Positions 331-18,793 of a DNA stretch of 20,000 nucleotides are shown here, in pieces. The stretch lies in IMG/VR virus record IMGVR_UViG_3300036398_005783; one strand, given 5' to 3'. The number at the start of each line of letters is the position of its first letter. The stretch's first letter is position 1. Both the position numbers and the translations under genes were made by a program. The notes below the pieces were generated by a model, which did not search any database, had not been told where the DNA came from, and saw only the letters and a list, made by a program, of their open reading frames with translations. This stretch comes from an uncultured virus (IMG/VR IMGVR_UViG_3300036398_005783) (lineage: Duplodnaviria; Heunggongvirae; Uroviricota; Caudoviricetes).

Positions 331-915
331 TTATTCTTCTATATCAGGTTTAAGTATTTGATTCTTTTCTTTTCTCCAATCAGATAATTCATCCCATGCA
401 GTTTTATTATCTTTATTTTTTATATTTTTATCTGCTCCATTTTTTAACAGAAAATTTAACATTTTGTCATTGTTAGTATAAAAGAGAACAGTATTACCTA
501 AATCATCAGTAGCATTAATATCTGCACCCATCTTAATAAAAAGAGATGCTATTGAATTATCTTCCTTAACAGCAACATGTAATGGTGTCATACCTTTTTT
601 AATTCTATACCTATCTGTTTCTCCACTTTTTACATCTATGTTTGCATCTTCTTTCAATAGCATTCTCGCTAATTTTCCATCATTTAATCTAGCAATATAA
701 TGTAAAGGTGCTAACCCATGCTTATCCCTTCCATCTAATTGAACAAGTCTTAAATCAATCAAATCCTGAATTTCATCATAATTAGGCCATTCAGTATTGA
801 CTTTACTATTAAACATCTCCTGTAGTTCATCAAAAGACTTACTTGTTAAAGAAATGTATTTAATTTCTTTAGCAAAGTCTTCCTCAAAAGTTTCATACAA
901 CTTAATATATTTCAT
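331..915 (-). CDS. Ankyrin repeat protein with CTS-like leader
   Basis: Repeats GLAPLHYIA, GMTPLHVAV..GADINATDDLGNTVLFY, LLKNGADKNIKNKDNKTAWD; N-terminus MKYIKLYETFEE. Confidence 0.9.
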   Translation of the reverse strand: MKYIKLYETFEEDFAKEIKYISLTSKSFDELQEMFNSKVNTEWPNYDEIQDLIDLRLVQLDGRDKHGLAPLHYIARLNDGKLARMLLKEDANIDVKSGETDRYRIKKGMTPLHVAVKEDNSIASLFIKMGADINATDDLGNTVLFYTNNDKMLNFLLKNGADKNIKNKDNKTAWDELSDWRKEKNQILKPDIEE

Positions 916-956
916 ATAAACGCATTAAATTTAATAACGAAAAGTTCGCTTTACTC

Positions 957-964
957 TATATATC
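957..964 (-). promoter_or_regulatory. Class II (late-like) promoter GATATATA
   Basis: GATATATAG on minus strand about 42 nt upstream of ATG 915; motif recurs before many genes. Confidence 0.65.
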
Positions 965-985
965 AAAAGCCCTTAACGGGCTTTT
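965..985. terminator. Intrinsic terminator
   Basis: AAAAGCCC-ttaac-GGGCTTTT inverted repeat downstream of 1012-1260. Confidence 0.75.
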
Positions 986-1011
986 AGATATTTTTTTATT
1001 TATAACTTTTA

Positions 1012-1260
1012 TTATTGATTTTCAAATGACATCAATTCTTCTGTATCTTCATTATACAACTCATTCATTGTTGTATTTTGAGCAATAGTTTTTAAGAAAT
1101 GAGAATAGTCTTTTGATACAGCATCATCAATTATACTATTAATTTCCAAATCACTCCATTGCTGATTAGAAGCAGTTTTAATAAATGAATCCATAATGTG
1201 CAAAGCATTTCCATTGAAATCTTTACCATCCATAATAACTAATTTTCTTTCTGATTTCAT
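1012..1260 (-). CDS. Small conserved phage-type hypothetical protein
   Basis: Pattern NGNAL-IM..F...W...EI..I...A...DY.H.L recalls a widespread small phage family (from memory); SD GAGGA upstream. Confidence 0.7.
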   Translation of the reverse strand: MKSERKLVIMDGKDFNGNALHIMDSFIKTASNQQWSDLEINSIIDDAVSKDYSHFLKTIAQNTTMNELYNEDTEELMSFENQ

Positions 1261-1275
1261 AACGATTCCTCAAAA

Positions 1276-1821
1276 TTATTTGGACAATTTGGTAGAAAAT
1301 AAAGTAATAAGGTAAATTTCAGAATTTACAACAGTTCTTGAAAGCATTGAAATTACTTGGTTTGGACAATTATTGTCAGCCCATGTATAAGAAATTCCGC
1401 TACTTTGATTTGGGTAATATTTTCCAGGTTTTTTATAGATGGCTTCAACTTTGCTCTTCAATGATTCTGCTAGTTTTGGACCACTTGATAAAGGTGCGTA
1501 AATAATTGTTCCAATTCTTGAAATCTTTTCATCTGGAGAAAAACCAATTTCATAAGTTAAAATACTTCCTTGCTCCCATCTGATTGTTGAATCGGTTTCA
1601 GTAAATGAGATGCCCTCATTAGATAAAGCATATTTAATCATTTCTCTATTGTGATCCCAAGAAACAACCCATACTCCTTTATCCGAATCAACCATTACAT
1701 CATATTCTTTACAATAAGAAAGAATTACATCTTTTCTCCAACCAATCGGATTACTCGTTGATTGACTAAACAAACTGCTATAACCCAACAAAATAGAAAT
1801 AGCAACAATAAATGTTTTCAT
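1276..1821 (-). CDS. Secreted hypothetical protein (signal peptide); start corrected from 1890 to 1821
   Basis: MKTFIVAISILLGYSSLFS-Q signal peptide; SD GAGG 5 nt upstream; the longer start overlaps the promoter. Confidence 0.75.
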   Translation of the reverse strand: MKTFIVAISILLGYSSLFSQSTSNPIGWRKDVILSYCKEYDVMVDSDKGVWVVSWDHNREMIKYALSNEGISFTETDSTIRWEQGSILTYEIGFSPDEKISRIGTIIYAPLSSGPKLAESLKSKVEAIYKKPGKYYPNQSSGISYTWADNNCPNQVISMLSRTVVNSEIYLITLFSTKLSK

Positions 1822-1859
1822 ACAAACCTCAAAAATAATAAAATTAAAAATTGACAATA

Positions 1860-1890
1860 CAAAGATAATAAAAAGTAGTGAATAATCCAA
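1860..1890 (-). promoter_or_regulatory. Class I FCB-type promoter
   Basis: TTGG-N19-TATCTTTG. Confidence 0.8.
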
Positions 1891-1922
1891 ATAAAATATT
1901 TTAAGAATACATTTTCAAATCT

Positions 1923-1930
1923 GATATATA
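1923..1930 (+). promoter_or_regulatory. Class II promoter GATATATA
   Basis: About 25 nt upstream of ATG 1955. Confidence 0.65.
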
Positions 1931-1954
1931 GAATTAAATATAACTTTTAATATT

Positions 1955-2680
1955 ATGGCTACAAAATATGTCAAATTATTTGAAAATTGGCTCAACGAAG
2001 ACGAAAATAAACAAAATGAGCAAAAACCATTTAATCCCGATAAACCTAGTTTAACAAATGTTCTTCTAATAAAAACAGAAGATATTGAAAAGAATCCACA
2101 AAAAGATGGTGAAATTATAGAAAGTATAGTTGATAGAATAGCATCCAAAATGGGAGAAAAAAATACAACTGTAAATGTATTCAAATACTATATGGGTGAA
2201 CCAGATTATAAGAATGGTCTTTTTCCTCTTTTCAAAAATGCTGAAGATACCAATAAACAAGTAATTTGGAAACCTTTTAGTGAAGGTGGAGAAACAAAAG
2301 GATTATTACCATTTGCTTCTGGTAAAGGTCCGCAAGAACCAAAAGGCAATTTTTATTTAGAAACATATGTTATACCAATGGCAGAAGATTGGAAAATGCA
2401 AGGCGATATATTAAACAATGATAAAGTTTTGATTATTGCAAAAAGTGATAAAAAAAGCAAAATGGCATTAAATTCTAAATGGTGGCTTTGGAATCATAAG
2501 AAGAGAGTTTGGGAATTAGTTTCTCTCGGTCAAATTGCAATGTTTGGATCAAGCGATTTCAAAGACCAAAGTTATCTTACTGACGCTACTAAATCAACTC
2601 CTTCACTAATATCAGGGTATTTAGATATGAAAGATTTTTATGAAAAGTATGCACCTGAAATTGAAGAACCTGAATCTTAA
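1955..2680 (+). CDS. Hypothetical protein with CTS-like leader
   Basis: 241-aa ORF starting MATKYVKLFENWLNE; promoter upstream, terminator downstream. Confidence 0.8.
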   Translation: MATKYVKLFENWLNEDENKQNEQKPFNPDKPSLTNVLLIKTEDIEKNPQKDGEIIESIVDRIASKMGEKNTTVNVFKYYMGEPDYKNGLFPLFKNAEDTNKQVIWKPFSEGGETKGLLPFASGKGPQEPKGNFYLETYVIPMAEDWKMQGDILNNDKVLIIAKSDKKSKMALNSKWWLWNHKKRVWELVSLGQIAMFGSSDFKDQSYLTDATKSTPSLISGYLDMKDFYEKYAPEIEEPES

Positions 2681-2702
2681 AACATTAATAAGTATTTCAA
2701 AT

Positions 2703-2733
2703 AAAGGTGGTAGTTAAACTAACCACCTTTTTT
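2703..2733. terminator. Bidirectional intrinsic terminator
   Basis: AAAGGTGGT...ACCACCTTTTTT between convergent genes. Confidence 0.8.
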
Positions 2734-3302
2734 TATTTTTCACAGATTCGTTTTGGCAACTCTGGATTATGATCTTGAAGATAAAAAAGATTTAGAGAAG
2801 CCACAATTCCATTTTTTGTTTCAATCCAATCAATAGTAACAAATGTAAATTCTTCATTCATAATTGCTTCCCAATGAGGTTGGCTATTTTTCCACCCATT
2901 GAAAAATTTTTCTAAGCATTCTTCATTCTCAATGTATGGAGGAATAATAGCTGAACATTCTCCTTTCAAACCAAATTTTACATTATTAGGAAGATTAACA
3001 CTATTGAAGAAACAAATATCTTTCTTAAAATTAAAATGCAATGCTTTTCTGGAATCGCTCATAAATAGTTCTTTAGACAAAGTATCTAAATGCTCTTTGA
3101 TTGATTGTGTTCTTTGGCGTGAAAGATTTTCATACTCAAAAGAATAACGGAATGGAGAAAGACCTGCTTCTACCCTATATTTATTCAATGAATCTAAAAT
3201 TTCCATTTTATCTTCAAGAGTAATAATAGTTTTATTTTCAGAAGAATTTTGAGCAAACAAACTTGTTGCAAAGAGAAACAATATAATTACAAACTTTTTC
3301 AT
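2733..3302 (-). CDS. Secreted CAP/SCP-domain protein
   Basis: Signal peptide MKKFVIILFLFATSLFA; LNKYRVEAGLSPF, GEC, GWKNSQPHWEAIMN CAP motifs; SD GGAG. Confidence 0.8.
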   Translation of the reverse strand: MKKFVIILFLFATSLFAQNSSENKTIITLEDKMEILDSLNKYRVEAGLSPFRYSFEYENLSRQRTQSIKEHLDTLSKELFMSDSRKALHFNFKKDICFFNSVNLPNNVKFGLKGECSAIIPPYIENEECLEKFFNGWKNSQPHWEAIMNEEFTFVTIDWIETKNGIVASLNLFYLQDHNPELPKRICEK

Positions 3303-3332
3303 AAGATAACTCCGTTGTTTTAATTTCTAATA

Positions 3333-3363
3333 CAAACATAATAAAAAATATAGAATAATCCAA
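3333..3363 (-). promoter_or_regulatory. Class I FCB-type promoter
   Basis: TTGG-N19-TATGTTTG. Confidence 0.8.
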
Positions 3364-3380
3364 GAAAAAAGTTAAAAATC

Positions 3381-3536
3381 TTAATAATACTTAAATTTGA
3401 AAGTTCTGCATTCAAATTTATTCTCTTTCTTTTTCTTATCTTCAACGATTCTGCTTTTGAAACGACCATCGTATGCACCAGCTTCAAGCATCTGTTCTCT
3501 CTTTATTTTGAGATATATGTTGCTTTTCTTTTTCAT
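3381..3536 (-). CDS. 51-aa basic peptide, ArfA-like candidate
   Basis: Not in ORF track: MKKKSNIYLKIKREQMLEAGAYDGRFKSRIVEDKKKKENKFECRTFKFKYY; own class I promoter and SD AAGGA. Gene call is firmer than the function. Confidence 0.7.
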   Translation of the reverse strand: MKKKSNIYLKIKREQMLEAGAYDGRFKSRIVEDKKKKENKFECRTFKFKYY

Positions 3537-3566
3537 AATATAATTCCTTAAATAAAATAACTATTA

Positions 3567-3597
3567 CAAACATAATAAAAAATACAATACATTCCAA
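3567..3597 (-). promoter_or_regulatory. Class I FCB-type promoter
   Basis: TTGG-N19-TATGTTTG. Confidence 0.8.
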
Positions 3598-3609
3598 ATA
3601 AAAATTACA

Positions 3610-4122
3610 TTATTTCTCAAAATCTATCTTGTGAACTTCAAGCGGAACGAACATATTTACAATAGGATATTGACCATCATAATATATTCCATCAAAATGC
3701 TTTTGGAGTTTTTCTAAAAGGTATTGAAAATTCATACCACCCATTTTCATAAAGTTATTTATTATTTCAAAAATTTCTAATGAAAGCAATTTGAATGTAT
3801 CTGGAGATTTTCTATAAAACTCAATCGCTTCAATTATATTAAATATAGTATCACCCGAAACTGTGGTTTTATAGAGATAATTAGAAGAACGAACTACTAA
3901 TGGTTCTGTTTTAGTTAAATCTGTATAATAAAATACTCTTGCGACATCCGAGCGTTTATAATCATTCATTGAATAATATTGTGCTCTTTTCTTTGCTTCA
4001 ATTGGATCAAGTATTGTTTCTTCACCCAAATCCTGATTTGTATAGTGAAATAAATTTACTTTACCTTCTAAAGTAAAAGGAAGGGGGTTTCCCCCCTTGC
4101 TATTTTTAATATCTGAATTCAT
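3610..4122 (-). CDS. Hypothetical protein, possible ADP-ribosyltransferase-like fold
   Basis: Motif order LFHYT...VFYYTD...YLY...FDGIYY resembles ART-like domains of phage polyvalent proteins; overlaps the metK 3' end. Confidence 0.5.
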   Translation of the reverse strand: MNSDIKNSKGGNPLPFTLEGKVNLFHYTNQDLGEETILDPIEAKKRAQYYSMNDYKRSDVARVFYYTDLTKTEPLVVRSSNYLYKTTVSGDTIFNIIEAIEFYRKSPDTFKLLSLEIFEIINNFMKMGGMNFQYLLEKLQKHFDGIYYDGQYPIVNMFVPLEVHKIDFEK

Positions 4123-5332
4123 TGATTTCTAAACTATTTGGAATGTATATATCGGAACTTTGTTCCGAACTACCATTTTTTTGGTAAGACTCCCATTTGA
4201 AGAATGATACATCTCCATTCTTTTTATGTGGATTACCAAAGTGACCATATCTTGATGTTTGCAAATAAATAGGAGATTTTAATTCTAAATAATCTATAAT
4301 AGAACTTGGGGTTAAATCTTCTAAATTAAAATCTTGAAGACTATATTCTTTACCATTAGTAGAATCAAATATTCTATAAGAGATAGGATATTTTTCTCCA
4401 ATTGCATAAGAAAGTTGAACTTTAATATTTTTGGCTTCTGGATTATTATGTAATGTTGTGAGTGCTATATGTCTTGCCATATAAGCAGCACTCCTATCAA
4501 CTTTACTTGGATCTTTTCCAGAAAATGCACCGCCACCTATTTCACAATCAGCACCATATTGATCTACAACAATTTTTCTTCCAGTTAAACCTGAATCTGA
4601 AACTGGACCTCCCATATTCCAAGTTCCTGCTGGATTGATGTAATACTTGGTTGTATTTTGAAATAGAGACTTAATTTCTTCAGGAACAGAATCAAGAACT
4701 TTTGGAAGAAGAACATAATGAAATAATTCTCTTAATGCTTTTAGAGAAAGTTCTTCTTTATGACATGTTGAAAAAACTAAAGAATGAACTTTTTTCGCTT
4801 TTCCATTTTCAAATTCAAGAGAAATTTGACTTTTCATATCAGGTCTAAACGGATACAATTTATCTCTAAATTCATACGCTTCTGAAATAAAAAGTTTTGA
4901 CAAATAAATAGGCAAAGGCATTTTTGTTGGAGTGTCATTTGTTGCAAATCCAAACATAATTCCTTGATCACCTGCTGTGACTTCCTCACCTGTTACAACA
5001 GCGTGATTAATTTCAGGTGATTGTTTTGATATATCAAATTGAATATTACAAGTATTACCATTAAAACCCAATTCATCGGAATTATATCCGATTTCAGAAA
5101 TGCAATTACGAACTGCATTCTCAATATAATCATTACTCAATTCAATATCGGATGTTATCTCACCAGCCAAATAAACATTATTACCCTTTACAAGAGTCTC
5201 ACATGCTACTTTGGCATTAGGATCGACCGATAGGTATGCATCTAAAACCACATCAGAAATTTGATCCGCTACTTTATCTGGGTGACCAGGTGAAACATAT
5301 TCACTTGTCCAGATATAAGAATTTTTACTCAT
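4106..5332 (-). CDS. metK: S-adenosylmethionine synthetase
   Basis: SEYVSPGHPDKVADQISD, VACET, AGDQGIMFG, GLTGRKIVVD, GGGAFSGKDPSKVDRSAAY, YGHFG; SD GAGG. Confidence 0.97.
   Translation of the reverse strand: MSKNSYIWTSEYVSPGHPDKVADQISDVVLDAYLSVDPNAKVACETLVKGNNVYLAGEITSDIELSNDYIENAVRNCISEIGYNSDELGFNGNTCNIQFDISKQSPEINHAVVTGEEVTAGDQGIMFGFATNDTPTKMPLPIYLSKLFISEAYEFRDKLYPFRPDMKSQISLEFENGKAKKVHSLVFSTCHKEELSLKALRELFHYVLLPKVLDSVPEEIKSLFQNTTKYYINPAGTWNMGGPVSDSGLTGRKIVVDQYGADCEIGGGAFSGKDPSKVDRSAAYMARHIALTTLHNNPEAKNIKVQLSYAIGEKYPISYRIFDSTNGKEYSLQDFNLEDLTPSSIIDYLELKSPIYLQTSRYGHFGNPHKKNGDVSFFKWESYQKNGSSEQSSDIYIPNSLEINEFRY
4146..4153 (-). promoter_or_regulatory. Class II promoter embedded in metK 3' end
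   Basis: GATATATA about 24 nt upstream of ATG 4122. Confidence 0.5.
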
Positions 5333-5382
5333 AAAACCTCAAAAATAAAAACAACAATTAATATAAAGTAAATTAGTTATCA

Positions 5383-5413
5383 CAAAGATAATAAATATTC
5401 CAATACAAAGCAA
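5383..5413 (-). promoter_or_regulatory. Class I FCB-type promoter (metK)
   Basis: TTGC-N19-TATCTTTG. Confidence 0.8.
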
Positions 5414-5433
5414 ATTATTTTTATCCATTTATA

Positions 5434-5441
5434 GATATATA
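5434..5441 (+). promoter_or_regulatory. Class II promoter GATATATA
   Basis: About 19 nt upstream of ATG 5460. Confidence 0.6.
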
Positions 5442-5459
5442 AGGAAAATGATTCTTTAT

Positions 5460-5939
5460 ATGAGATACATTAAAGTATTTGAAGATTTTTATGAAGTAAA
5501 TGAAATAGGATATAGACCCATAGATAATAATGAAATTTCATCAAATACTCAAAATTACTTAAATGATATTTTTTTCAAGGAATTAGGTAAATCAGAACCA
5601 AATTTTGAAATTATAGAGAATTTGTTAAAAAATAAAATAGTAGATATAAATTGTAAGGGTATATGGAATAGAACAGCACTCCATCTTTCAGCATATTACA
5701 ATCATATAAATATAATTAAAATGCTTTTAGAATTAGGAATTGATATAGAAAGTTTAGATATTTGGAACAAAACAGCATTACATATAGCATCTTTTTATAA
5801 TAGATTTGAGATTATTCAAATGCTTTTGAATAAAGGTTCAGATAACAATAAAAAAGATAGTTATGGAAAAACTGCTTGGGATTATGCAAATGAATTTATT
5901 AAGATTTCATTACCTGAATTAAAACCTAAAAATAAATAA
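5460..5939 (+). CDS. Ankyrin repeat protein with CTS-like leader (alternative start 5448)
   Basis: RTALHLSAYYNHINIIKMLLELG, KTALHIASFYNRFEIIQMLLNKG, GKTAWDYA; MRYIKVFEDFYEVNE leader. Confidence 0.9.
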   Translation: MRYIKVFEDFYEVNEIGYRPIDNNEISSNTQNYLNDIFFKELGKSEPNFEIIENLLKNKIVDINCKGIWNRTALHLSAYYNHINIIKMLLELGIDIESLDIWNKTALHIASFYNRFEIIQMLLNKGSDNNKKDSYGKTAWDYANEFIKISLPELKPKNK

Positions 5940-5946
5940 TAATACT

Positions 5947-6081
5947 ATGAAATTCACAAAAATAAGAATGGGAAAAGAAAACCGAAAATTAAGAATAGGA
6001 ATTGGAAAATATGAAGGTTCTTGGTTTTTTAGAATAGATTTATGGTTTATTGGTTTCAGATTATCAAGTAAAAAATCCTGA
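5947..6081 (+). CDS. 44-aa basic/aromatic hypothetical peptide
   Basis: Not in ORF track: MKFTKIRMGKENRKLRIGIGKYEGSWFFRIDLWFIGFRLSSKKS; begins 7 nt after the previous stop. Confidence 0.6.
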   Translation: MKFTKIRMGKENRKLRIGIGKYEGSWFFRIDLWFIGFRLSSKKS

Positions 6082-6088
6082 TATATAG
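6080..6088 (+). promoter_or_regulatory. Class II promoter with no downstream CDS
   Basis: GATATATAG followed by a hairpin and terminator only. Confidence 0.55.
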
Positions 6089-6092
6089 AAAT

Positions 6093-6177
6093 ATGGGTAC
6101 TTGACTCCTCTGCTTTATATCAAAGCATAATCAAGTAGGAATGGGAAAGGGAAAGAGGGCTTTTAGCCCTCTTTTTA
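6093..6177 (+). ncRNA. Candidate late-expressed small RNA (~85 nt)
   Basis: Promoter box, stem TACTTGA/TCAAGTA with inner TGCTTT/AAAGCA, purine-rich linker, terminator; only a 3-codon ORF. Confidence 0.5.
6152..6176. terminator. Bidirectional intrinsic terminator
   Basis: AAAGAGGGC-tttta-GCCCTCTTTTT. Confidence 0.85.
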
Positions 6178-6178
6178 T

Positions 6179-7633
6179 TTATTGCATAATTTGAATTTTC
6201 TCAACTATCATATCTCCTACATGCTTTCCATTATGTTTATAGAATGAAAAATTGTAAGATTCCGCTTTGTTAATTTCATATTCAAATGTAACAAGAGTTC
6301 TTCCACTTTTGGTTGTTTCTTTACAACATCCTCCACCGCAATCTTTTGAAATCATCTCATGATCAGAACCGAAGAAAGTCATATAACCTACAAAGTTAGG
6401 TATTGATGGGTATGGTAAAATATTCTTGTTTCTATTCAGATAAACTTCATAAACTCCCTTTGGTCTTTTAGTAAAAGATACTTGTATTAAAACTTTTGTT
6501 TTAGCATTAAAACTTGATTTTAATGGTTGCTTTTTCACATTAATAGTAATAGCATCTGTTATCTGAGAGTTAATAGATATTTTTTCCACACTTTCGCCAA
6601 TCACTTGTTTGAATGATGCCTGAGCAAGTAATTGATTTTCATTCTTCATAACGGGTGTATCATCAAAATCATAGTCCATAGTGTAAAGAATTTTCATAAC
6701 ATCTTCCATTGTATAGACTACTTTCTTACCATGTTCATCAAAAAATACATAGTCCCAAGGAATTGATTTTAATTCTTCAATAGTTACCATTTGACCATTT
6801 TTTGAATTTGTCCATTGTTGCCAAATTCTATCTATATTTGAATGATGCATCCAAAATATAGGATCAAAACCTGCTGTTGGAACCCAACCCATTAAACCAT
6901 CTTCAGTAATCGTGCCTGTAATTGTATTATTAAAACGCTTTCCATCAGGTTCATTACCATGACCAATATAATCATGTATAGCACCATGTGGAGCATTGTT
7001 TATATTTTTACAATACATTTGATATGTAGTGTAATCATTCAATTTTGTTAAATCTAATGCTCTTTCGATTTCACCTGAAATTGGATGTCCATTATTAATA
7101 CTATCAAATCTGCAAGATTCCCATAAACTTGATGATGGATTTCTGAATGTTGGGTGAAGATATTTATCCTTTGGATTTGAATTGGTATATCCCCAATATG
7201 GTAAAGCAAAATCCTTATGTCCTGATAACCTTCTTACAATCTTTTCAAAATGATAAATGTATAATCTATGCCAAACTAAAAAATGTAACTTTTCTTTTCC
7301 GCTAGGTGAATGTGTGCAATTATCCCAAGCAATCTTTTTATCAAGATATGTATGATATGATTCACACAATTTATTATTATTAATCGTATCTGGAATCCAA
7401 TGAATCGCTCCTTGATAATACCAACTTAATGGATTATTGCAATTCTTATCCCTCATAATTTTGAATGCTTTTTCAAGTGCTTCAACATCTTTTTTTGCTT
7501 CTGCCGAAAAGTAATTTTTTCTAACATAGCGAGTTGGTTCTTCTTGGATTCTTAACCATACAAAATATCCTATTGCTTGTAAAAGCACAACAGATAATGT
7601 AATTAAAATCCACTTGTTTTTCAGGATTTTCAT
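6179..7633 (-). CDS. Tyrosinase / polyphenol oxidase (type-3 copper protein), N-terminal membrane anchor
   Basis: CuA: GAIHW, NCTH, FLVWHRLYIYHFE; ALPYW; CuB: APHGAIHDYIG, FDPIFWMHHSNIDRIW; C-terminal PPO-like domain (GVYEVYLN...FVGYMTFFG). Confidence 0.93.
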   Translation of the reverse strand: MKILKNKWILITLSVVLLQAIGYFVWLRIQEEPTRYVRKNYFSAEAKKDVEALEKAFKIMRDKNCNNPLSWYYQGAIHWIPDTINNNKLCESYHTYLDKKIAWDNCTHSPSGKEKLHFLVWHRLYIYHFEKIVRRLSGHKDFALPYWGYTNSNPKDKYLHPTFRNPSSSLWESCRFDSINNGHPISGEIERALDLTKLNDYTTYQMYCKNINNAPHGAIHDYIGHGNEPDGKRFNNTITGTITEDGLMGWVPTAGFDPIFWMHHSNIDRIWQQWTNSKNGQMVTIEELKSIPWDYVFFDEHGKKVVYTMEDVMKILYTMDYDFDDTPVMKNENQLLAQASFKQVIGESVEKISINSQITDAITINVKKQPLKSSFNAKTKVLIQVSFTKRPKGVYEVYLNRNKNILPYPSIPNFVGYMTFFGSDHEMISKDCGGGCCKETTKSGRTLVTFEYEINKAESYNFSFYKHNGKHVGDMIVEKIQIMQ

Positions 7634-7684: not shown

Positions 7685-7692
7685 GATATATA
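7685..7692 (+). promoter_or_regulatory. Class II promoter GATATATA
   Basis: About 25 nt upstream of ATG 7717. Confidence 0.6.
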
Positions 7693-8012: not shown

Positions 8013-9233
8013 TTATTGGATAACCATCCAATTTACACCATTATACCACAATGTTCTTGATTGACCTGCAAAAATAACAACATCAAGCATAGTATCAATA
8101 TTCCAAGTGATTCCACGCAATGTTACAACATTTGCAGTTGATCCATTATGCACAGTTACCATCTGACCTAAAATAGGGTTAGTAATTGCAGTCATATTGT
8201 AATCAACAGCCACACGACTTACAATATATCTTTCTGTATTTGCAAGTGAAAGTGGTGCTTGTGTATACAATGATACAGATGTTGTAAAGTGATGTGGATT
8301 TACTGCCCAACGCAAACCAGTTGCACTAGCCATAGCGTATGAACCAATAGGAGCAGTTGAACCACCATCTAAAGCAGGAAGTTTGACAGAATTGTTTTTG
8401 AAATGGCTTGAAACCAAAACAGAATCAATGATATTATTAGCAATACCAGATGTAGCAGAATGTCCAGAATTTACGCTATAAAGAGCAGTATCTGCATAAA
8501 CAGAATGATTACTATTCACAGCATATAAAGAACTATCAGAAGTTGCTGAGTGATTAGCTTCAATTGAATAAAATGCACTATCAGCAATTTCAGCATGAGC
8601 TGAATTTGAGGAGTAACCAGATAGGCGAGAATAAATAGACTCAAGTGCAATTGTTGAAGAATCTGCCCAATGACTTGATGCAGATCTACCTGCTCTTTTA
8701 GCAGAATCCGCTAATGTTGAATTAACAGAATGAAATGCATTATTAGATGAATCTGAAATAGCGGATCTTCCTGAATTAATTGCAAACAAAGAAGTATCGG
8801 ACTTTACCGCATGTCTTGCTTCATTGGCTCTTACTGCATTTAGAGCATTTCTTGATGAATCTGAATTTGTTGAGAATTGAGAATGAAGTGCATATGGTAC
8901 TCTATGCAAAGGGAGTTTACCAATTTTTACTCCATTTACATAAGCATATACAAAAATATTTGAACTATTGTTCAAAAATACTGAATTAGGAATATCCTCT
9001 AAAAGAACATTAATAATTCCTTCAAATACCTCAACTTTTTTATTCTCAACAAACCAAAAAGCAGAAGTATTCAAATGTGAATCTTCATTAAAAGAATTAT
9101 CTGCAATATATGCAGAAAAAGAAATTTCACCAGAAATACCTGGTGGAACATGTGCTTGATATTGCAAGTCTGTTGTTTGTGCAGTAAGACTAACTGCAAA
9201 CATAGCGAAAAAAGCTACGAAAAGAGATTTCAT
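8013..9233 (-). CDS. Secreted fibre/adhesin-like protein of FCB type with (A/S)xx repeats
   Basis: Signal peptide; LQYQA...V.VFEGIINVLL...LHRVPYALHS N-domain; long 3-residue-periodic Ala/Ser stalk; SD GAGGA. Confidence 0.7.
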   Translation of the reverse strand: MKSLFVAFFAMFAVSLTAQTTDLQYQAHVPPGISGEISFSAYIADNSFNEDSHLNTSAFWFVENKKVEVFEGIINVLLEDIPNSVFLNNSSNIFVYAYVNGVKIGKLPLHRVPYALHSQFSTNSDSSRNALNAVRANEARHAVKSDTSLFAINSGRSAISDSSNNAFHSVNSTLADSAKRAGRSASSHWADSSTIALESIYSRLSGYSSNSAHAEIADSAFYSIEANHSATSDSSLYAVNSNHSVYADTALYSVNSGHSATSGIANNIIDSVLVSSHFKNNSVKLPALDGGSTAPIGSYAMASATGLRWAVNPHHFTTSVSLYTQAPLSLANTERYIVSRVAVDYNMTAITNPILGQMVTVHNGSTANVVTLRGITWNIDTMLDVVIFAGQSRTLWYNGVNWMVIQ

Positions 9234-9248
9234 GATTTCCTCTTAAAG

Positions 9249-9674
9249 TTATTGAAATAAAATTTGTGTACTAATTGATTTATTATCTTGTGTAATCATT
9301 CTAACATAGTACACGCCACGATTTTGCAATGTGATTGTTTTAGAATGAAGATTTACAGCATCCATATAAATTTTTCCATACAAATCACTAATAATAATTT
9401 GCTTAATATTATCTAGTGAAAAATACGCAATTCCATTACATGGATTAGGGTAAATAATATCAGTAAGTGCAATGTTTTCATCGGCTTGGACTGAAGTAGT
9501 CAAACGCCTTGGAGTTCTTATACCTACATGAAATGAATTTTTGTGACCTGCGATAACTTGACCAACTGTGGCTCTGTTACTCCCCCCAGTCACAACCTTT
9601 TTCAAAAGAAAGGGGGAGTAATCTTTTGCAGTCAAACCTGATATGCAAAAGAAAAGTGTTAGGATGAATCTCAT
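9249..9674 (-). CDS. Secreted protein with T9SS type-A C-terminal sorting domain
   Basis: Signal peptide; ATVGQ; IIYPNP...IIISDLYGK...RGVYYVRM CTD signature; SD AGGAGG. Confidence 0.85.
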   Translation of the reverse strand: MRFILTLFFCISGLTAKDYSPFLLKKVVTGGSNRATVGQVIAGHKNSFHVGIRTPRRLTTSVQADENIALTDIIYPNPCNGIAYFSLDNIKQIIISDLYGKIYMDAVNLHSKTITLQNRGVYYVRMITQDNKSISTQILFQ

Positions 9675-9766
9675 TCAACCCTCCTATTGTTAAAAAAATA
9701 ATTTCATAGTATTTAGAAATTGTAAGTAAATAGTTCAAAAACCAATTATTGATATTCATAGAACTT

Positions 9767-9812: not shown

Positions 9813-9821
9813 AATATATAG
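9813..9821 (+). promoter_or_regulatory. Class II promoter variant AATATATAG
   Basis: About 20 nt upstream of ATG 9841. Confidence 0.6.
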
Positions 9822-11252: not shown

Positions 11253-11279
11253 AAGTATTTCCTTATATTATTTTTACTA

Positions 11280-11310
11280 CAAAGATAATAAAGTTTTATC
11301 AAAAAAACAA
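11280..11310 (-). promoter_or_regulatory. Class I FCB-type promoter
   Basis: TTGT-N19-TATCTTTG. Confidence 0.8.
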
Positions 11311-11356: not shown

Positions 11357-11364
11357 GATATATA
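11357..11364 (+). promoter_or_regulatory. Class II promoter GATATATA
   Basis: About 26 nt upstream of ATG 11390. Confidence 0.6.
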
Positions 11365-11389: not shown

Positions 11390-11788
11390 ATGGATTTGAC
11401 CACTAAAAAATTTACAATCACATTACCCACTCTTATAGGGATTCTGTCTGCGATTTCAACTATAATAGCTGGATATTGGTATTTCAAGAATACCATAGAA
11501 ACTACAAAATCAAGTGTAGTTTCAGCAAACGAAAATTACAAAGAGCTAAAATCAGAAATTCAAATTTTAAGAGAGCAGTTATACGAAGTTGCAATAATGT
11601 ATAATAAAAATGTTCATATAGAAAATGAATTACACAACGATAGAAAATACAAAAGGCGAAATGTTACAAATTTCTATGATGAAGATATTAGAACATCTGT
11701 AAAACCATTACAATTTAATGGATTACGCAGAGATACTATTGATATTAATAAGATGAAAATTAAAAATACTATACAGCGAAAAAAATAA
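11390..11788 (+). CDS. Single-TM, coiled-coil membrane protein
   Basis: LPTLIGILSAISTIIAGYWYF TM followed by a heptad-like segment and basic tail. Confidence 0.7.
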   Translation: MDLTTKKFTITLPTLIGILSAISTIIAGYWYFKNTIETTKSSVVSANENYKELKSEIQILREQLYEVAIMYNKNVHIENELHNDRKYKRRNVTNFYDEDIRTSVKPLQFNGLRRDTIDINKMKIKNTIQRKK

Positions 11789-11986: not shown

Positions 11987-12094
11987 TTATCGTTGTATTT
12001 TATGTATCATATGGGCAAATGATACAATAGTGATAATGGTTAATATAACCAAAGGGTGCATTAGTGCTCTCACATATTTGTTATGAACTTTCAT
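11987..12094 (-). CDS. 35-aa single-TM peptide (type I toxin-like)
   Basis: Not in ORF track: MKVHNKYVRALMHPLVILTIITIVSFAHMIHKIQR; SD GAGGAAGG and class I promoter. Confidence 0.7.
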   Translation of the reverse strand: MKVHNKYVRALMHPLVILTIITIVSFAHMIHKIQR

Positions 12095-12126
12095 AACCTT
12101 CCTCTATAATTAGAAATTCAGTTTTA

Positions 12127-12157
12127 CAAAGATAATACTTTTTATTATCTTTTACAA
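12127..12157 (-). promoter_or_regulatory. Class I FCB-type promoter
   Basis: TTGT-N19-TATCTTTG. Confidence 0.8.
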
Positions 12158-12176: not shown

Positions 12177-12184
12177 GATATATA
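12177..12184 (+). promoter_or_regulatory. Class II promoter GATATATA
   Basis: About 30 nt upstream of ATG 12214. Confidence 0.6.
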
Positions 12185-12684: not shown

Positions 12685-12692
12685 GATATATA
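12685..12692 (+). promoter_or_regulatory. Class II promoter GATATATA
   Basis: About 23 nt upstream of ATG 12715. Confidence 0.65.
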
Positions 12693-14211: not shown

Positions 14212-14213
14212 AA

Positions 14214-14235
14214 AAAGCCCTCAAATGAGGGCTTT
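14214..14235. terminator. Bidirectional intrinsic terminator
   Basis: AAAGCCCTCA-aa-TGAGGGCTTT between convergent genes. Confidence 0.85.
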
Positions 14236-14239
14236 AATT

Positions 14240-15202
14240 TTACCAAGCTAAAATTGTTGGAACTGCTCTATTTGTTGATATTAAAACTTGTCCATCTCTA
14301 ACAAAAAATGATGAACCTCCACCATCCATATTAATAGCGTCTTTCGCCCCTGCTCTTTGCATTTTTTCACCCATAGACTCTATATCAGATCTAGGTGAAA
14401 CCATAACAATTATATCATTATTAGATGTTATACCAACAGCAGTTCTTGGTCGTATTGCAGAATCTTTTGGAGATTGGTTAATATTTTGAGATACACCATC
14501 TTTTACAATAATATGACTACCAGAAAATGCTTCTTCTGGACTTATGAAATCGGTTGCTCTTTCAACAATATCAAGGTTGGGTTTAGTTACCATCATAGGC
14601 CAATACTTACCTAATGTATCTAATTTATCACCTAAATTTATTCCGTTTGAATAGAAATTACTAGTTGGTTTACCACTACTTTCAAAGAAAGTTAAATTTA
14701 CAAAATTCTTAAAACCCTGTTGCATCCATTCACTAATTGTAAGTCTTCTGAAATCAGATGAAAAAACTACTTTAACTATTGATGGATCGATAATCTCTAT
14801 TCTCTCTTCTCCACTATCAACATTCTTAGATAATTCTTTCTCAACACCAAGTTTTATATCAGTATTAGGTGATTGATTTATTGATGGTAAATTTTGAGGT
14901 TCTTTCTTTGTAATAGAAAGATTCATAGAATTTAATGTTTCAGGAGTTAATTCACCAAGTGATGTTAATCCTTTAGATTTCTGATATGTAATTATTGCTT
15001 GTTCAGTTTCTAAACCTAACATTCCATCAATAGCTGTTTTACCATTTGGTCTTTTACTATTCATAAAGTTATTATTAACTAAAAAACTTTGAACCTTCAT
15101 AATATCATCAAAAGAAAATCCTTTGTTATTATAGTTAGATGATTCGTATAATGAACTCCAAGATTCAAAAGATAAGACTCTATTTCTATTAGTATTTTTC
15201 AT
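14240..15202 (-). CDS. Peptidoglycan-binding domain + phosphodiester glycosidase (NAGPA/DUF2233-like)
   Basis: IDGMLGLETEQAIITYQKSKGL..GELTPETL (PG_binding_1); RPRTAVGIT and AINMDGGGSS motifs. Confidence 0.88.
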   Translation of the reverse strand: MKNTNRNRVLSFESWSSLYESSNYNNKGFSFDDIMKVQSFLVNNNFMNSKRPNGKTAIDGMLGLETEQAIITYQKSKGLTSLGELTPETLNSMNLSITKKEPQNLPSINQSPNTDIKLGVEKELSKNVDSGEERIEIIDPSIVKVVFSSDFRRLTISEWMQQGFKNFVNLTFFESSGKPTSNFYSNGINLGDKLDTLGKYWPMMVTKPNLDIVERATDFISPEEAFSGSHIIVKDGVSQNINQSPKDSAIRPRTAVGITSNNDIIVMVSPRSDIESMGEKMQRAGAKDAINMDGGGSSFFVRDGQVLISTNRAVPTILAW

Positions 15203-15308
15203 AATTTTTTATTTTTAATATATAGTATAAAATAACATTTCAACATTATGGATAATGATAAGTCTTCTAATTTAGAAACTAAAGAAGATTTGGATTTTTT
15301 TGAACATT

Positions 15309-16640
15309 TCAGCGATTCAATTTATTTCCAGACTTTTTAGATTCATTAAAAAGAGTAAGTTGGTCTGGGTGATAAAATGCTTTTTTATCACTCTCACCTT
15401 CTTCCCATTCTCCACTATCATTTATTATTTTACCACCGACTTTTACATATTTTCTTATATCATCAGCCGTCATTCTTATTTTTGAATTTTTGCTTAATGA
15501 AAGTTCAGTTCCTTTGTAATTAAAATCCCCTCCGATTTCTTTTGGAGCACCTTCAATGGATTTTAATTTAGGATTATCACTCAAATCACAATCTCTTCCT
15601 ATTATTTGAGGGCATCCTTGCAGATCTTCTATATCAGTATTATTAAAACTAAAATCATATTGTATTTCTTCTGGCAAACTACATTCTTTCATTGAATTGA
15701 CATCATTATTTCTTTCATTTGCAGAAATCCAATCTCCCCAAACTTTTTTAAACCAAGTATATTGTTCTGATGGATAATAAATATAAACATCTCCATCATA
15801 ATTTATAGATCCATCTTTATTAACTTCTACTTTTGAAATATCTAGTTCTAAATTAGTTACATCGTAATACCACATTGGTTTTTCCATTTCAACTGATTCA
15901 AATGTATCTTCATCAAGACCAGTTATTTTCTTTACTATTTTGAAATCAATTGAATTATCATCTTTATCAAAACATTCATATTGATCGCGATAATAGTTAG
16001 ATACCGCTACCGCCATTTTTGTTCTTTGTTTTACTTCTATATCATCTTCTTCAAGATATTCATTAGAGTTCAAAATTAAATCAACATTTTTTATCCAGAT
16101 ATAATAAAAGGAAATATCTCTTTCTAAAGTATAAGAATACCAAAAACTAGGATTTGTGCTAGTAGTACACCATTTAGTATCATCTCCCCACAATTTACTT
16201 GCTTCATGGTCAAAAGGAATAACGATAAGCATATCATCGTTATTAACTATTATATCAAAATCCCCATTGGTTAATTCTTTAGTTTCTCTTTCAATTTCTT
16301 CTTTTTTTGCTTCTTTAACAGCAGATTTTAAATCTTCTAATGTTCTATATGAAGTTATATCAGATTTTTTTATCTTATTTCTTTCAAGAAGATTATGAAA
16401 TTCAACAAAAACCTTTCCTATTCTTTGTAATTCTGTTTCAGTTTTATCTTCACCCCTTAAATAGAATTCAATTATCTTTTCAATATATTTTCCATTAGAA
16501 CTTTTATCAAATTCCAATGCATCTTCAAATTCTTCTTCAGTTATTCTTTTCTTATCCAAAAATCTTTTTTTAGCATTATTTATGGATTCATTAATACCTA
16601 TTGATTGGCTTTCTTCCCATTGTTTAAATGAATGTATCAT
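15309..16640 (-). CDS. Multidomain phage protein: CTS-like leader, G-x-x-TKWC domain, C-terminal LRR-like repeats
   Basis: MIHSFKQWEES..INES; HEASKLWGDDTKWCTT; DLQGCPQIIGRDCDLSDN, SIEGAPKEIGGDF. Confidence 0.75.
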   Translation of the reverse strand: MIHSFKQWEESQSIGINESINNAKKRFLDKKRITEEEFEDALEFDKSSNGKYIEKIIEFYLRGEDKTETELQRIGKVFVEFHNLLERNKIKKSDITSYRTLEDLKSAVKEAKKEEIERETKELTNGDFDIIVNNDDMLIVIPFDHEASKLWGDDTKWCTTSTNPSFWYSYTLERDISFYYIWIKNVDLILNSNEYLEEDDIEVKQRTKMAVAVSNYYRDQYECFDKDDNSIDFKIVKKITGLDEDTFESVEMEKPMWYYDVTNLELDISKVEVNKDGSINYDGDVYIYYPSEQYTWFKKVWGDWISANERNNDVNSMKECSLPEEIQYDFSFNNTDIEDLQGCPQIIGRDCDLSDNPKLKSIEGAPKEIGGDFNYKGTELSLSKNSKIRMTADDIRKYVKVGGKIINDSGEWEEGESDKKAFYHPDQLTLFNESKKSGNKLNR

Positions 16641-16664
16641 AAGACTATTTATATTAAGTAATTC

Positions 16665-16672
16665 TATATATC
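16665..16672 (-). promoter_or_regulatory. Class II promoter GATATATA
   Basis: About 25 nt upstream of ATG 16640. Confidence 0.65.
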
Positions 16673-16735
16673 CTACATTATCTTAATTGTTTTCTTCATT
16701 TTTTTATTACTTTAGGAATATATAAAGTAAAAACT

Positions 16736-16873
16736 ATGAAAAGATCAAGTAATGCTTCACAAAAGAAAGAATCTAAACCAAAGAAAACAAGACAGGGTAA
16801 AAGCATAAACACCAAATTATCTGCTACCCCATCTAGTCCAAAGCGTAAAGCATATAAAGGACAAGGAAAATAA
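16736..16873 (+). CDS. 45-aa very basic peptide of the T4-like phage KKTRQG...Y(R/K)GQG family
   Basis: Not in ORF track: MKRSSNASQKKESKPKKTRQGKSINTKLSATPSSPKRKAYKGQGK; AATATATA box at 16717-16724 and terminator right after. Confidence 0.8.
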   Translation: MKRSSNASQKKESKPKKTRQGKSINTKLSATPSSPKRKAYKGQGK

Positions 16874-16874
16874 A

Positions 16875-16894
16875 AAAGCCCCAATCGGGGCTTT
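16875..16894. terminator. Bidirectional intrinsic terminator
   Basis: AAAGCCCC-aatc-GGGGCTTT. Confidence 0.8.
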
Positions 16895-16895
16895 A

Positions 16896-17162
16896 TTATT
16901 TTTGTTTATACAATTTTATCTTCAAATCTCCACTTCCTTTTATTAACCTGTGATAAACTTCTTTTGCTATAAAGACTTTATCTTTTATTTCTTTAGGAAG
17001 TTCATTATCTATTTGAATTTTCCAATCCGTCTCATGTAGGGGTTCAATAAATCTATCTTCTTCATCTCTGTGCCAAGTAAAATCACCAGAATCTTCATTT
17101 TCAGAGAAAATTCTAATATAAACATTATCTTCAATATGTTTTTCTTGGAAAGGGAGTTTCAT
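16896..17162 (-). CDS. Small cupin-like conserved phage protein
   Basis: TWHRDEEDR...W..QIDNELP...FI....YHRLIKG cupin-like His motifs. Confidence 0.7.
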   Translation of the reverse strand: MKLPFQEKHIEDNVYIRIFSENEDSGDFTWHRDEEDRFIEPLHETDWKIQIDNELPKEIKDKVFIAKEVYHRLIKGSGDLKIKLYKQK

Positions 17163-17165
17163 AAA

Positions 17166-17753
17166 TTACCAATAACCAGGATAACTTTTACCACCCCAAA
17201 GATGAGCATATCTATTTACTCTACATGCCCAATACCCAGGAGTCAATTTATTTGTTTTAAGATGACACTTATGCCTTGATGCAAATCTTTTTCTTGCTTC
17301 TGGATCTGCTACCTTTGCTTTCAATCCACCTTTAACATCACCAAAATGAACAACCTTTACATTGTTTGTTTTTGGATCTTTGACATATACCTTATATTTC
17401 TTTGGACCTGAACTTCTTGTAGGTCTATTTAATTCAACAGACTTACCTTGATATTCTGCTTCTAAAATTTGAATATATTCATCTGTAAAAAGTGGTAAAT
17501 CAAGAGGTACTAATTCACCATTATAGTGTTCAAATATCCCAATGTCTGTATTTCTGAAAAGATAATCATCAACTTCATTAAGATTTTCAAACAAACCTTT
17601 TTCATAGCACTCTCTTGATTCTCTCAATAATTCAAAATAAGATTCAGATTCAGGTCTGAATACATTATCAACGAGAGGAATATTATTAGTTATATGATAA
17701 TTTAGATTTTCAGATATTTCCTGAAACTCTTTGAAATTTTTAATCAAATTCAT
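17166..17753 (-). CDS. Conserved viral protein: acidic N-region with leader, basic C-domain (VHFG...RF..RH...GYW; DUF5754-like)
   Basis: MNLIKNFKEFQEISE; KKYKVYVK..KVVHFG..ARKRFASRHKC..PGYWAC. Family name from memory; AATATATAG box at 17772-17780. Confidence 0.65.
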   Translation of the reverse strand: MNLIKNFKEFQEISENLNYHITNNIPLVDNVFRPESESYFELLRESRECYEKGLFENLNEVDDYLFRNTDIGIFEHYNGELVPLDLPLFTDEYIQILEAEYQGKSVELNRPTRSSGPKKYKVYVKDPKTNNVKVVHFGDVKGGLKAKVADPEARKRFASRHKCHLKTNKLTPGYWACRVNRYAHLWGGKSYPGYW

Positions 17754-17783
17754 AATTACATCTATTTTATTCTATATATTGAA

Positions 17784-18017
17784 TTATGAAATTAGTTTGA
17801 TTAAATTATCATAGTGGCTTTGTGCTATTTCTGTTAATTTTATTTTATCCGAATTATCTATGAATTTTACAGACTTTAGATTAAATAAATCATTTGAGAA
17901 ATAAAGATTATTAGTGCCATCTTCTTTTTCTTCTATCCAATACAAAATATTATTTTCTTCATCAATAGCTTGAATGATAGAATCTTCACAAAAAATATTC
18001 CAAACGAGTGTTTTCAT
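17784..18017 (-). CDS. Small hypothetical protein
   Basis: 77-aa ORF starting 1 nt after the upstream stop. Confidence 0.65.
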   Translation of the reverse strand: MKTLVWNIFCEDSIIQAIDEENNILYWIEEKEDGTNNLYFSNDLFNLKSVKFIDNSDKIKLTEIAQSHYDNLIKLIS

Positions 18018-18018
18018 T

Positions 18019-18255
18019 TTAACCTTTTAAAATTTCTTTAAGTTCTGATTTTAGTTTTTTTGCATTATCACCTCTAAATGTAGAAGCATTGGCAAGAAAA
18101 TAATTTACAATCTCTGAAGCTGAATCAAAACCATATTTATCTTTAGGTGTAGATAGAAAAAGCATAGCTTCAAGATATGGTTTAGCACCAAAATAAACTT
18201 TATCGCCCCATTCTTTTTGAATATCACGAGCGATTTCAAAAATTCTTCTTTCCAT
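18019..18255 (-). CDS. Conserved small phage protein (78 aa); start corrected from 18390
   Basis: MERRIFEIARDIQKEW...AKPYLEAM...YFLANASTFRG..AKKLKSELK; SD GGAG; longer start spans the promoter. Confidence 0.8.
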   Translation of the reverse strand: MERRIFEIARDIQKEWGDKVYFGAKPYLEAMLFLSTPKDKYGFDSASEIVNYFLANASTFRGDNAKKLKSELKEILKG

Positions 18256-18317
18256 AATAAACTCCAATAACAATAATAAAACAAACAAAATATAAGTGAT
18301 TACTAAAATCAACTGCA

Positions 18318-18348
18318 CAAATATAGGTAAAAGATAATAAATAACCAA
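18318..18348 (-). promoter_or_regulatory. Class I FCB-type promoter
   Basis: TTGG-N19-TATATTTG. Confidence 0.75.
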
Positions 18349-18391
18349 ATAAAAAATCAAATATATACTATTAGTCAAAATACTATACAAT

Positions 18392-18793
18392 ATGCACCAT
18401 ATCCTTGAATTTGAAGAATGGAATAGAAAAGCAGATTCTAATAATCTAAACGAATCAACATCGGCTTTCTTAACAAATCATATAATGTTTGAATTAGAGA
18501 AAAGAAATATTCTGTTTGACCATTGGAAAACAGGTGAAATCTTTGCAAAAGAAATAGAGAATATTATACAAATTCTATTTAATGATAAAGAAATAAAACA
18601 ATTAAGAAAACAGATAATAAAAGACAAAACTTTGATGCATAATATAGCAACCATATTTGTAGGAAAAGTTAAAGATGCAAGAAGAATTTTATCAAAAAAA
18701 GGATATGCAAGACCAAAGGAAATGGATTTGAATCATATTATGAAATCCTATGTTCCAGAAATTATTGAACAAATTAAAAATTTAGTCAAATAA
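18392..18793 (+). CDS. Hypothetical protein with CTS-like leader
   Basis: MHHILEFEEWN...LNES; AATATATA box at 18360-18367. Confidence 0.75.
   Translation: MHHILEFEEWNRKADSNNLNESTSAFLTNHIMFELEKRNILFDHWKTGEIFAKEIENIIQILFNDKEIKQLRKQIIKDKTLMHNIATIFVGKVKDARRILSKKGYARPKEMDLNHIMKSYVPEIIEQIKNLVK

Follow-up and report, generated by a model that had tools for sequence, protein, structure and literature searches.

Ribosomal proteins encoded by phages are widely assumed to redirect translation, an idea that has no readable target in hosts free of Shine-Dalgarno (SD) sequences, because there phage and host mRNAs look alike. Here we describe a 20,000-nucleotide stretch of DNA from an uncultured virus (IMG/VR record IMGVR_UViG_3300036398_005783; hereafter the window), in which genes behind one class of promoter (class I) tend to carry SDs, whereas those behind a second, probably late class (class II) have SD-less leaders. 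Among the closest described systems, the huge phages of Al-Shayeb et al. 2020 are likewise jumbo phages with genes for a bS1-like protein and initiation factor 3 (IF3), SD-poor starts and a proposed ribosome substitution; those with rpS1 rarely have SDs, a correlation drawn over whole genomes, and the authors doubt which of the S1 proteins are true rpS1 (PMC7162821). The system described here differs in that SD use is split by promoter class inside one genome, the anchor of the phage bS1 tracks the type of host, and the late bS1 mRNA is itself SD-led. The bS21-encoding Bacteroidetes phages of Chen et al. 2022 are similar in being freshwater-type T4-like myoviruses of hosts from the Fibrobacteres-Chlorobi-Bacteroidetes (FCB) group, and their late-expressed bS21 was proposed to substitute and to favour phage mRNA; the words 'promoter' and 'sigma' are absent from the main text (PMC9723584). 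Unlike in those phages, no bS21 was found in six records, all fragments, of the branch that shows the split (the SD branch), and the host is likely to use SDs. The gene layout of the Chen clade, with a reverse-strand bS21 among genes for TerL, portal, protease and the major capsid protein (MCP), was not encountered either: in G011, a relative, these four genes lie scattered and no bS21 was found.

Two further comparisons concern T4 and the Bacteroidia. In T4, as here, the SD region marks early against late mRNAs and S1 is involved, through the nuclease RegB; T4 late mRNAs, however, may carry a cleavage-resistant GGAG and the S1 is that of the host (PMC3014915), whereas here late genes are SD-less and five records, mostly fragments, gave no RegB match in a search whose control was silent too. 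SD-blind initiation in Bacteroidia, with A at -3, -6, -12 and -13 (PMC6847099, PMC7797042), is matched by an A-rich segment at -16 to -12 and by the promoter element TAnnTTTG. Unlike in Bacteroidia, this mode is found here on late phage genes, while ribosomal-protein genes of the host lineage often use SDs. The late promoters resemble those read by T4 gp55, whose consensus we take to be TATAAATA, in having a single 8-nt A/T element with the transcription start (+1) a few nucleotides downstream, a gp55-like sigma factor in kin, and structural genes behind them. They differ from T4 in their consensus, [GA]ATATATA, and in also driving the non-structural genes for bS1, ClpC and bS21. In a literature search made mostly without subscription papers, no account turned up of such phages dividing SD use by promoter class inside one genome. 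The known theme is that of phage ribosomal proteins; the feature itself is real and replicated, and a mechanism is plausible.

The window makes up the final 20 kb of G000, the virus record of a T4-like jumbo phage, which is 77,087 bp long and 57% complete. The class I motif, TTTTATTATCTTTGTA, holds TAnnTTTG, often with TTGCA upstream, and this element precedes 26 genes of the record; TAnnTTTG is the consensus of the -7 element of the Bacteroidota sigma-ABfr (PMC6847099). The class II motif is [GA]ATATATA, also written GATATATA. Judged from sequence, class I promoters, which are host-type, are likely to be early or middle, and class II promoters to be late and read by a gp55-like sigma; that the class II motif fronts a lysis gene, the spanin of the window, supports the late assignment. 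In G011 (200 kb), which we located together with G012 by a search for the promoter-plus-SD pattern, the class II motif also precedes genes for sheath, tube, wedge, tape measure and lysozyme. G011 shares with G000 its promoter motifs and a module of six genes, which are 53-100% identical (97-100% for three of them), and encodes a T4-like MCP, portal, TerL, gp32 and clamp loader, its MCP being closest to that of an uncultured 462-kb phage (45%) and then to those of Lak phages (37-39%). It further encodes a gp55-like late sigma (L237:13524-13868, phrog_234, E 5e-15) that is not in the G000 fragment.

We determined SD use by classing the 122 ATG-started open reading frames (ORFs) of G000 by their nearest motif, blind to SD, and calling an SD wherever an AGGA, GGAG or GAGG 4-mer fell at -18 to -4. 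This analysis revealed SDs before 20 of 26 class I genes, none of 22 class II genes and 21 of 74 unclassed ones (Fisher p 1.6e-8). Shuffled leaders would give 1.5 and 0.5, which marks class I as enriched and places class II at compositional background. Duplex energies with an anti-SD octamer show the split over the whole record, with medians of -4.85 kcal/mol for class I and 0.0 for class II (p 8e-8). Removing duplicated leaders left 14/18 against 0/22, ankyrin genes occur in both classes with SDs on the class I members only, and the folding energy of the start region (-1.9 against -1.5 kcal/mol) gives no class separation that explains the split. Within the window, all ten SD runs and eleven SD-less class II starts of the original prediction proved to be in place, and each of the eleven class II genes has [GA]ATATATA 11-41 nt before its ATG and none of the three 4-mers. 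Its class I list was borne out in part: a strict TAnnTTTG lies within 140 nt of seven of the ten, but of none at 1260, 9233 or 9674, and position 12094, counted there as a class I gene, opens merely a 35-amino-acid (aa) ORF.

The pattern recurs in relatives, in which gene starts are first-ATG calls and some of the same genes lie in several loci. For the 195-aa gene at 17753 we found 294 viral relatives, of which the best 80 were examined, on contigs of up to 465 kb; the loci that hold them are mostly almost SD-free throughout. SD use together with SD-less class II genes was found in the nearest relatives (G006, G007 and G008) and in G011/G012. The class I to class II comparison gave 7/17 against 5/59 in G011 (p 0.004) and 4/5 against 2/20 in G008 (p 0.005). 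Across ten SD-branch records or loci, SDs precede 39 of 67 class I and 11 of 145 class II genes; without G000 the figures are 19/41 and 11/124 (p 6e-7), and counted per protein family 28/51 and 8/94 (p 2e-9). The eleven SD-bearing class II genes include those for bS1 (three) and ClpC (two), and some of the others are probably miscalled starts. SDs are also found on old core genes of G011, namely gp32, a gp62-like gene, bS1 and IF3, the last with a GTG start after AAGGA.

Could the split be a matter of geometry, with class II 5' untranslated regions (about 19 nt) too short or too constrained by the promoter to hold an SD? Class II leaders are indeed shorter as a class (median about 24 against 33 nt, p 2e-5), as had been predicted, even if that of gene 915 measures 41 nt, and the SDs of class II genes concentrate in long leaders. 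When motif-to-ATG distance is matched, however, the association persists in the whole record, with SDs on 18/24 class I against 0/18 class II genes at 19-45 nt and 6/9 against 0/16 at 19-31 nt, so that short leaders fail as its full explanation. The pooled records gave 2/5 against 1/56 in the shortest bin, 11/17 against 1/33 at 26-32 nt and 18/26 against 3/17 at 33-40 nt. Furthermore, leaderless genes in kin place the +1 about 4-5 nt past the class II motif, so that an SD would still fit at -12 to -7. Leader length therefore contributes to the split without explaining it, and geometry as the cause, largely refuted by the matched bins, is highly improbable.

A set of SD-free relatives with proteins of the Bacteroidia type suggests where the SD-less leader came from. 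In these, SDs precede 1/123 class II genes in G001, 1/37 in G003 and 1/50 in G010 (400 of 465 kb, 200 of 228 kb and 180 of 183 kb covered), and both classes are SD-free. Leaderless class II genes number 80/210 there, compared with 9/145 in the SD branch. An A peak at -16 to -12, which we call the A-box, is found in both branches, and its position follows the ATG, not the promoter: the A fraction is 0.58 against 0.47 and 0.45 in the flanks for long leaders of the SD branch (p about 0.02), and 0.64 against 0.49 and 0.51 in SD-free kin. In Flavobacterium johnsoniae, A-12 and A-13 promote initiation, and domain 4 of bS1 has been modelled at -12 to -15 and proposed to read that region (PMC6847099). 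The suggestion that late mRNAs use a different initiation signal thus gains support, as class II leaders share the A-box. As far as leader sequences tell, late leaders without an SD are ancestral and have a positive signal of their own, so that the novelty of the branch is the gain of SDs elsewhere. In G001 (tiles L249-L268), an ATG lies within 8 nt of the motif in 44/123 class II and 28/43 class I genes, the latter with a mode of 4 nt, which bears indirectly on whether class I promoters have their +1 4-5 nt past the -7 element; IF3 and bS21 are class II genes in this genome.

The original prediction of an SD-using FCB host stands up well. In stretches of four UBA961-like genomes, TAnnTTTG occurs 11, 24, 15 and 21 times against 1-4 expected, and SDs precede 116/504 genes, 2-6 times the shuffle level; three of the four have a canonical anti-SD. 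Both the ClpC and the bS1 N-terminus of related phages match this lineage, the only tested one to use TAnnTTTG and SD together, and the host is likely to belong to it (UBA961/Kapabacteria-like; the name Kapabacteria follows GTDB, and a literature search for it found nothing). By comparison, a genome titled Ignavibacteria has SDs on 39/123 genes with no enrichment of TAnnTTTG, and one with a Tyr54-type bS21 has the promoter and few SDs (7/61). With ClpC of G007, seven genomes, UBA961 among them, reached 1130-1150 bits; the others in a set of 101 from that class did not exceed 1107, and a further 101 genomes, from the class of G021, did not exceed 1042. We take the class of G021, from its bS21 and bS1, to be Bacteroidia. 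In a quick ClpC tree, built from the top ten hits of each search and four phage rows, two SD-branch rows fell among the UBA961-side group (SH-like approximate likelihood ratio supports 100 and 99; long branch; search unfinished).

Other routes to the host gave less. A search of 301 genomes with the window brought up no recognisable CRISPR (clustered regularly interspaced short palindromic repeat) spacer, two short matches proving not to be arrays. For metK and the 9233 family, no genome match from pattern scans was confirmed, and a separate search of 151 genomes gave one weak match. The promoter-plus-SD pattern was rejected as a host identifier by itself, as it also matches many Bacteroidota and unrelated taxa. 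A 2.6-kb contig in a bin of the host class (L375, G253:C79) carries a metK 69% identical to that of the window, with an SD, and is possibly a piece of phage inside the bin.

If the host uses SDs, are the late genes SD-less by inheritance only? On this account, late and core genes would keep ancestral SD-less leaders that the host reads well, SDs would have been acquired by early cassettes of recent gain or duplication, and phage bS1 would supplement ribosomes without discriminating. SD-free relatives do carry the same class II leaders at the counts given above, SD use by the host is optional (116/504) and reaches 32% in Ignavibacteria (PMC10783764), conserved replication genes are frequently SD-less too, and many G000 class I leaders are duplicated cassettes. 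Time was not limiting, however, because gp32, bS1, the gp62-like gene and IF3 gained SDs, and the branch did remodel its class II leaders, as the loss of leaderless genes attests. Structural, lysis and late-sigma genes of G011 stand at 0/13, compared with 72/135 ribosomal-protein-like genes of the host lineage (p 1.5e-4; 4/20 to 18/22 across six genomes). A second phage family (G016-G018; L271-L277, L427-L432), which has TAnnTTTG with SD, a late motif of the TATTTATA type, groES/groEL and no Tyr54 in its bS21, also argues against this account. Its GroEL in G016 is closest to that of UBA961 (84%) within the scanned 1/64 of the collection. This family likely also infects the UBA961-like lineage, and it has SDs on 8/24 genes behind its own late-type motif (120 of 177 kb; p 0.001 against 11/145). 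The lack of SDs on late genes is thus characteristic of the family under study and not forced by the host type. Inheritance as the whole explanation is a strong rival, though in our view less probable than the reading favoured below.

We then considered which protein might serve these leaders. Besides IF3 and a RimK-like ligase of class II, G011 has a gene for an S1-domain protein of 384 aa that matches Escherichia coli bS1 (phmmer E 2e-14). Its model shows four beta-rich domains (predicted local distance difference test, pLDDT, 81), with bS1-bearing 30S entries as top Foldseek hits; these tandem OB/S1 domains are homologous to D1-D4 of bS1, the best match in PDB by both sequence and fold. There are 141 viral relatives, of which the best 80 were examined, giving 48 distinct copies. 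Among the distant copies, 43/44 have the class II motif and 1/44 an SD, whereas all four of the SD branch combine the class II motif with AAGGAA (L369 read at the aligned start). The N-terminal FxW is present in 27/29 SD-free phage copies and 19/21 copies from Bacteroidia-class hosts, but in 0/4 SD-branch phage and 0/20 host-order copies, and SD-branch N-termini score 4-7 points higher against the host order than against Bacteroidia segments, the others scoring lower (p 5e-5, four related sequences). This N-terminal helix is the anchor of bS1 on uS2 in E. coli (PMC10123108). A complex of phage bS1 with uS2 of the host lineage was predicted with a score of 0.75 against 0.00 for the best control (residues 3-39 and 62-68), the runs agreeing in at least 91% of contacts and partner pLDDT being at least 81; the score mark was passed by 116/157 solved and 2/215 mismatched pairs. 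Phage bS1 is thus predicted to dock on host uS2, although, as bS1-uS2 is already solved as a pair, the prediction shows likeness and not binding.

The original prediction had named bS21 as the possible translational switch. In this scenario, a late phage bS21 of the Bacteroidia type (Tyr54) would occlude the host anti-SD and render ribosomes SD-blind. The SD-free G001 and G003 do encode class II bS21 proteins with the Tyr, which the bS21 of the host lineage lacks, and in F. johnsoniae SD blindness depends on Tyr54 and the C-terminus (PMC9976891); a bS21 is also found in the second phage family. Yet profile hidden Markov models found no bS21 in G000, G006, G007, G008, G011 or G012, all fragments (6-57% complete), nor did tblastn in four of them; a viral scan with the host-type bS21 found no viral relative, and anti-SD occlusion also needs contacts to bS18 and bS6 (PMC7797042). 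A bS21 switch is therefore unlikely, and of the bS21, bS1 and initiation factors sought, the bS1 and IF3 of G011 were recovered, with phage bS1 the better candidate. The RimK-like ATP-grasp protein of G011, at L236:17289-18707 (-), is a class II gene product. RimK modifies bS6, part of the 30S platform.

A quite different route would be destruction or masking of SD-bearing early and host mRNAs, by a RegB-like nuclease or by an anti-SD-like RNA at 6088-6182 of the window, which would lead late genes to avoid SDs. In T4, RegB cleaves the GGAG of early SDs and has S1 as its cofactor (PMC3014915), and the candidate RNA follows a class II motif and folds into a hairpin in which CUCCUC lies exposed (z -2.6 with the terminator counted). 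However, RegB had no match in five records, mostly fragments, in a search in which the positive control was also silent everywhere; SDs here are mostly AAGGA or GAGG and not one cleavable motif, and the late bS1 mRNA is itself SD-led. The RNA had no Rfam match and no homologue in the loci examined or in close-kin neighbourhoods, and none of its 67 viral pattern hits lay behind a class II motif. It was seen in the G000 phage and in a 99%-identical copy (L575) only, and close kin keep the split without it, which led us to reject it as the cause. Altogether, SD-directed silencing seems very improbable.

On the strength of these sequence comparisons we favour two initiation modes, to which we give a probability of about one half: SD for those mRNAs that unmodified ribosomes read, and the A-box, assisted by phage bS1, for late mRNAs. 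The family would ancestrally have been SD-free, in Bacteroidia-like hosts, before one of its branches shifted to a UBA961/Kapabacteria-like host whose anti-SD is free. Genes read by unmodified ribosomes (early accessory genes, gp32, IF3 and bS1) would then have gained SDs, that of bS1 because the protein must exist before it can act, and structural genes would have retained the A-box because phage bS1 serves A-box leaders. More tentatively, and rather less probably, the two modes might amount to a temporal switch, in which phage bS1, made from a rare SD-led late mRNA, is swapped onto the 30S subunit and favours A-box virion mRNAs at the expense of early and host ones. Its host-matched anchor would put it on the 30S, turning an SD-reading ribosome into an A-box-reading one, and an SD-led upstream ORF (uORF) at the sheath start of G011, described below, would act as a brake released by the switch.

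Several observations weigh against this interpretation. All promoters and gene starts are motif calls only. Class II SDs lie at background in G000, with no depletion below it; G007 alone is not significant (2/10 against 1/17); in the pool, class II SD frequency climbs with leader length (1/56, 1/33, 3/17, 4/14) and the classes are alike in leaders of 41-50 nt (3/6 against 4/14). No strict class II motif lies within 65 nt of the G011 genes for MCP, portal, protease and TerL, although the first three belong to class II in G001, and many G011 replication genes (DNA polymerase, ribonucleotide reductase, topoisomerase) are SD-less as well. The A-box effect is modest. The bS1 copy comes from G011 and is not in the G000 record, 57% complete as it is, and since bS1 and A-box are both ancestral, neither was invented for an SD-using host. 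Finally, SDs precede only about 23% of the genes in the host lineage (first-ATG calls), so late leaders may simply work unaided; as the host likely translates most genes without SD, and SD-less late leaders are older than the host move, no switch is strictly required.

The SD branch nonetheless constitutes a natural experiment, in which strong host genes use SDs, early phage genes have adopted them and structural genes have not. It names a candidate protein (bS1), an RNA element (the A-box at -16 to -12) and matched control leaders of one genome, making the hijack model testable in vitro without phage culture. In addition, promoter, SD and bS1-anchor type together offer a sequence-only means of sorting jumbo phages by Kapabacteria-like and Bacteroidia hosts.

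Table 1. Promoter motifs, SD sequences and associated genes in the window.
Feature	Coordinates	Strand	Associated gene and remarks
Class I -7 element	1860..1867	-	Gene start 1821; SD GAGG 1827-1830
Class I -7 element	3333..3340	-	CAP-domain gene start 3302; SD GGAG 3310-3313
Class I -7 element	3567..3574	-	51-aa gene 3381-3536; SD AAGGA 3545-3549
Class I -7 element	5383..5390	-	S-adenosylmethionine (SAM) synthetase metK 4106-5332; SD GAGG 5337-5340
Class I -7 element	11280..11287	-	Gene start 11252; SD AAGGA 11260-11264
Class I -7 element	12127..12134	-	35-aa ORF at 12094; GAGGAAGG 12097-12104
Class I -7 element	18318..18325	-	Gene start 18255; SD GGAG 18262-18265
SD GAGGA	1267..1271	-	Gene start 1260; strict promoter motif absent
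SD-led gene pair	8013..9685	-	9674 (9249-9674, type IX secretion system (T9SS) C-terminal domain, AGGAGG) and 9233 (GAGGA); no strict class I motif
Class II motif	957..964	-	Ankyrin gene start 915; SD-less 41-nt leader
Class II motif	1923..1930	+	Gene start 1955; SD-less
Class II motif	4146..4153	-	Gene start 4122; SD-less; not listed in the original prediction
Class II motif	5434..5441	+	Ankyrin gene 5448-5939; no SD before the called start
Class II motif	7685..7692	+	Gene start 7717; SD-less
Class II motif	9813..9820	+	Gene start 9841; SD-less
Class II motif	11357..11364	+	Rz-like spanin gene 11390-11788; SD-less; lysis gene
Class II motif	12177..12184	+	Gene start 12214; SD-less
Class II motif	12685..12692	+	Gene start 12715; SD-less
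Class II motif	16665..16672	-	Gene start 16640; SD-less
Class II motif	16717..16724	+	45-aa lysine-rich basic protein 16736-16873, phrog_516; SD-less
Class II motif	17773..17780	-	Conserved 195-aa gene start 17753; SD-less
Class II motif	18360..18367	+	Gene start 18392; SD-less
Orphan class II motif, hairpin and shared terminator	6080..6182	+	CUCCUC in internal loop; candidate small RNA

Among the window genes without a strict promoter motif of their own, 1260 is likely co-transcribed with 1821, and the 9233/9674 pair is also present in the second phage family. Four clustered orthologues of the 17753 gene are SD-less likewise. The protein encoded at 16736 has an unusually short motif spacing of 11 nt and is conserved in L578. 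Close kin also conserve a phage tyrosinase (6179-7633, -), the SAM synthetase and the T9SS C-terminal-domain protein. The basic 51-aa class I protein is conserved in kin as well, its 15 homologues being unnamed or 'hypothetical'; a suspected resemblance to the ribosome-rescue factor ArfA was set aside, as it had no Pfam or PHROGs match.

In the sheath leader of G011 (L239:16164-16200, -), a GGAGG is followed 7 nt on by an out-of-frame ATG, and the resulting 6-aa uORF overlaps the sheath start; such an SD-led uORF was found in 1/116 class II leaders of the SD branch and 0/96 of SD-free kin. Lastly, an N-terminal peptide motif resembling M..IK.FE.F/W is shared by 11/22 class II proteins of G000 and by 0/26 class I proteins. 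Its carriers include the window genes at 915, 1955, 5448, 12715, 16640, 17753 and 18392 and many relatives, and it is possibly a capsid-targeting signal.

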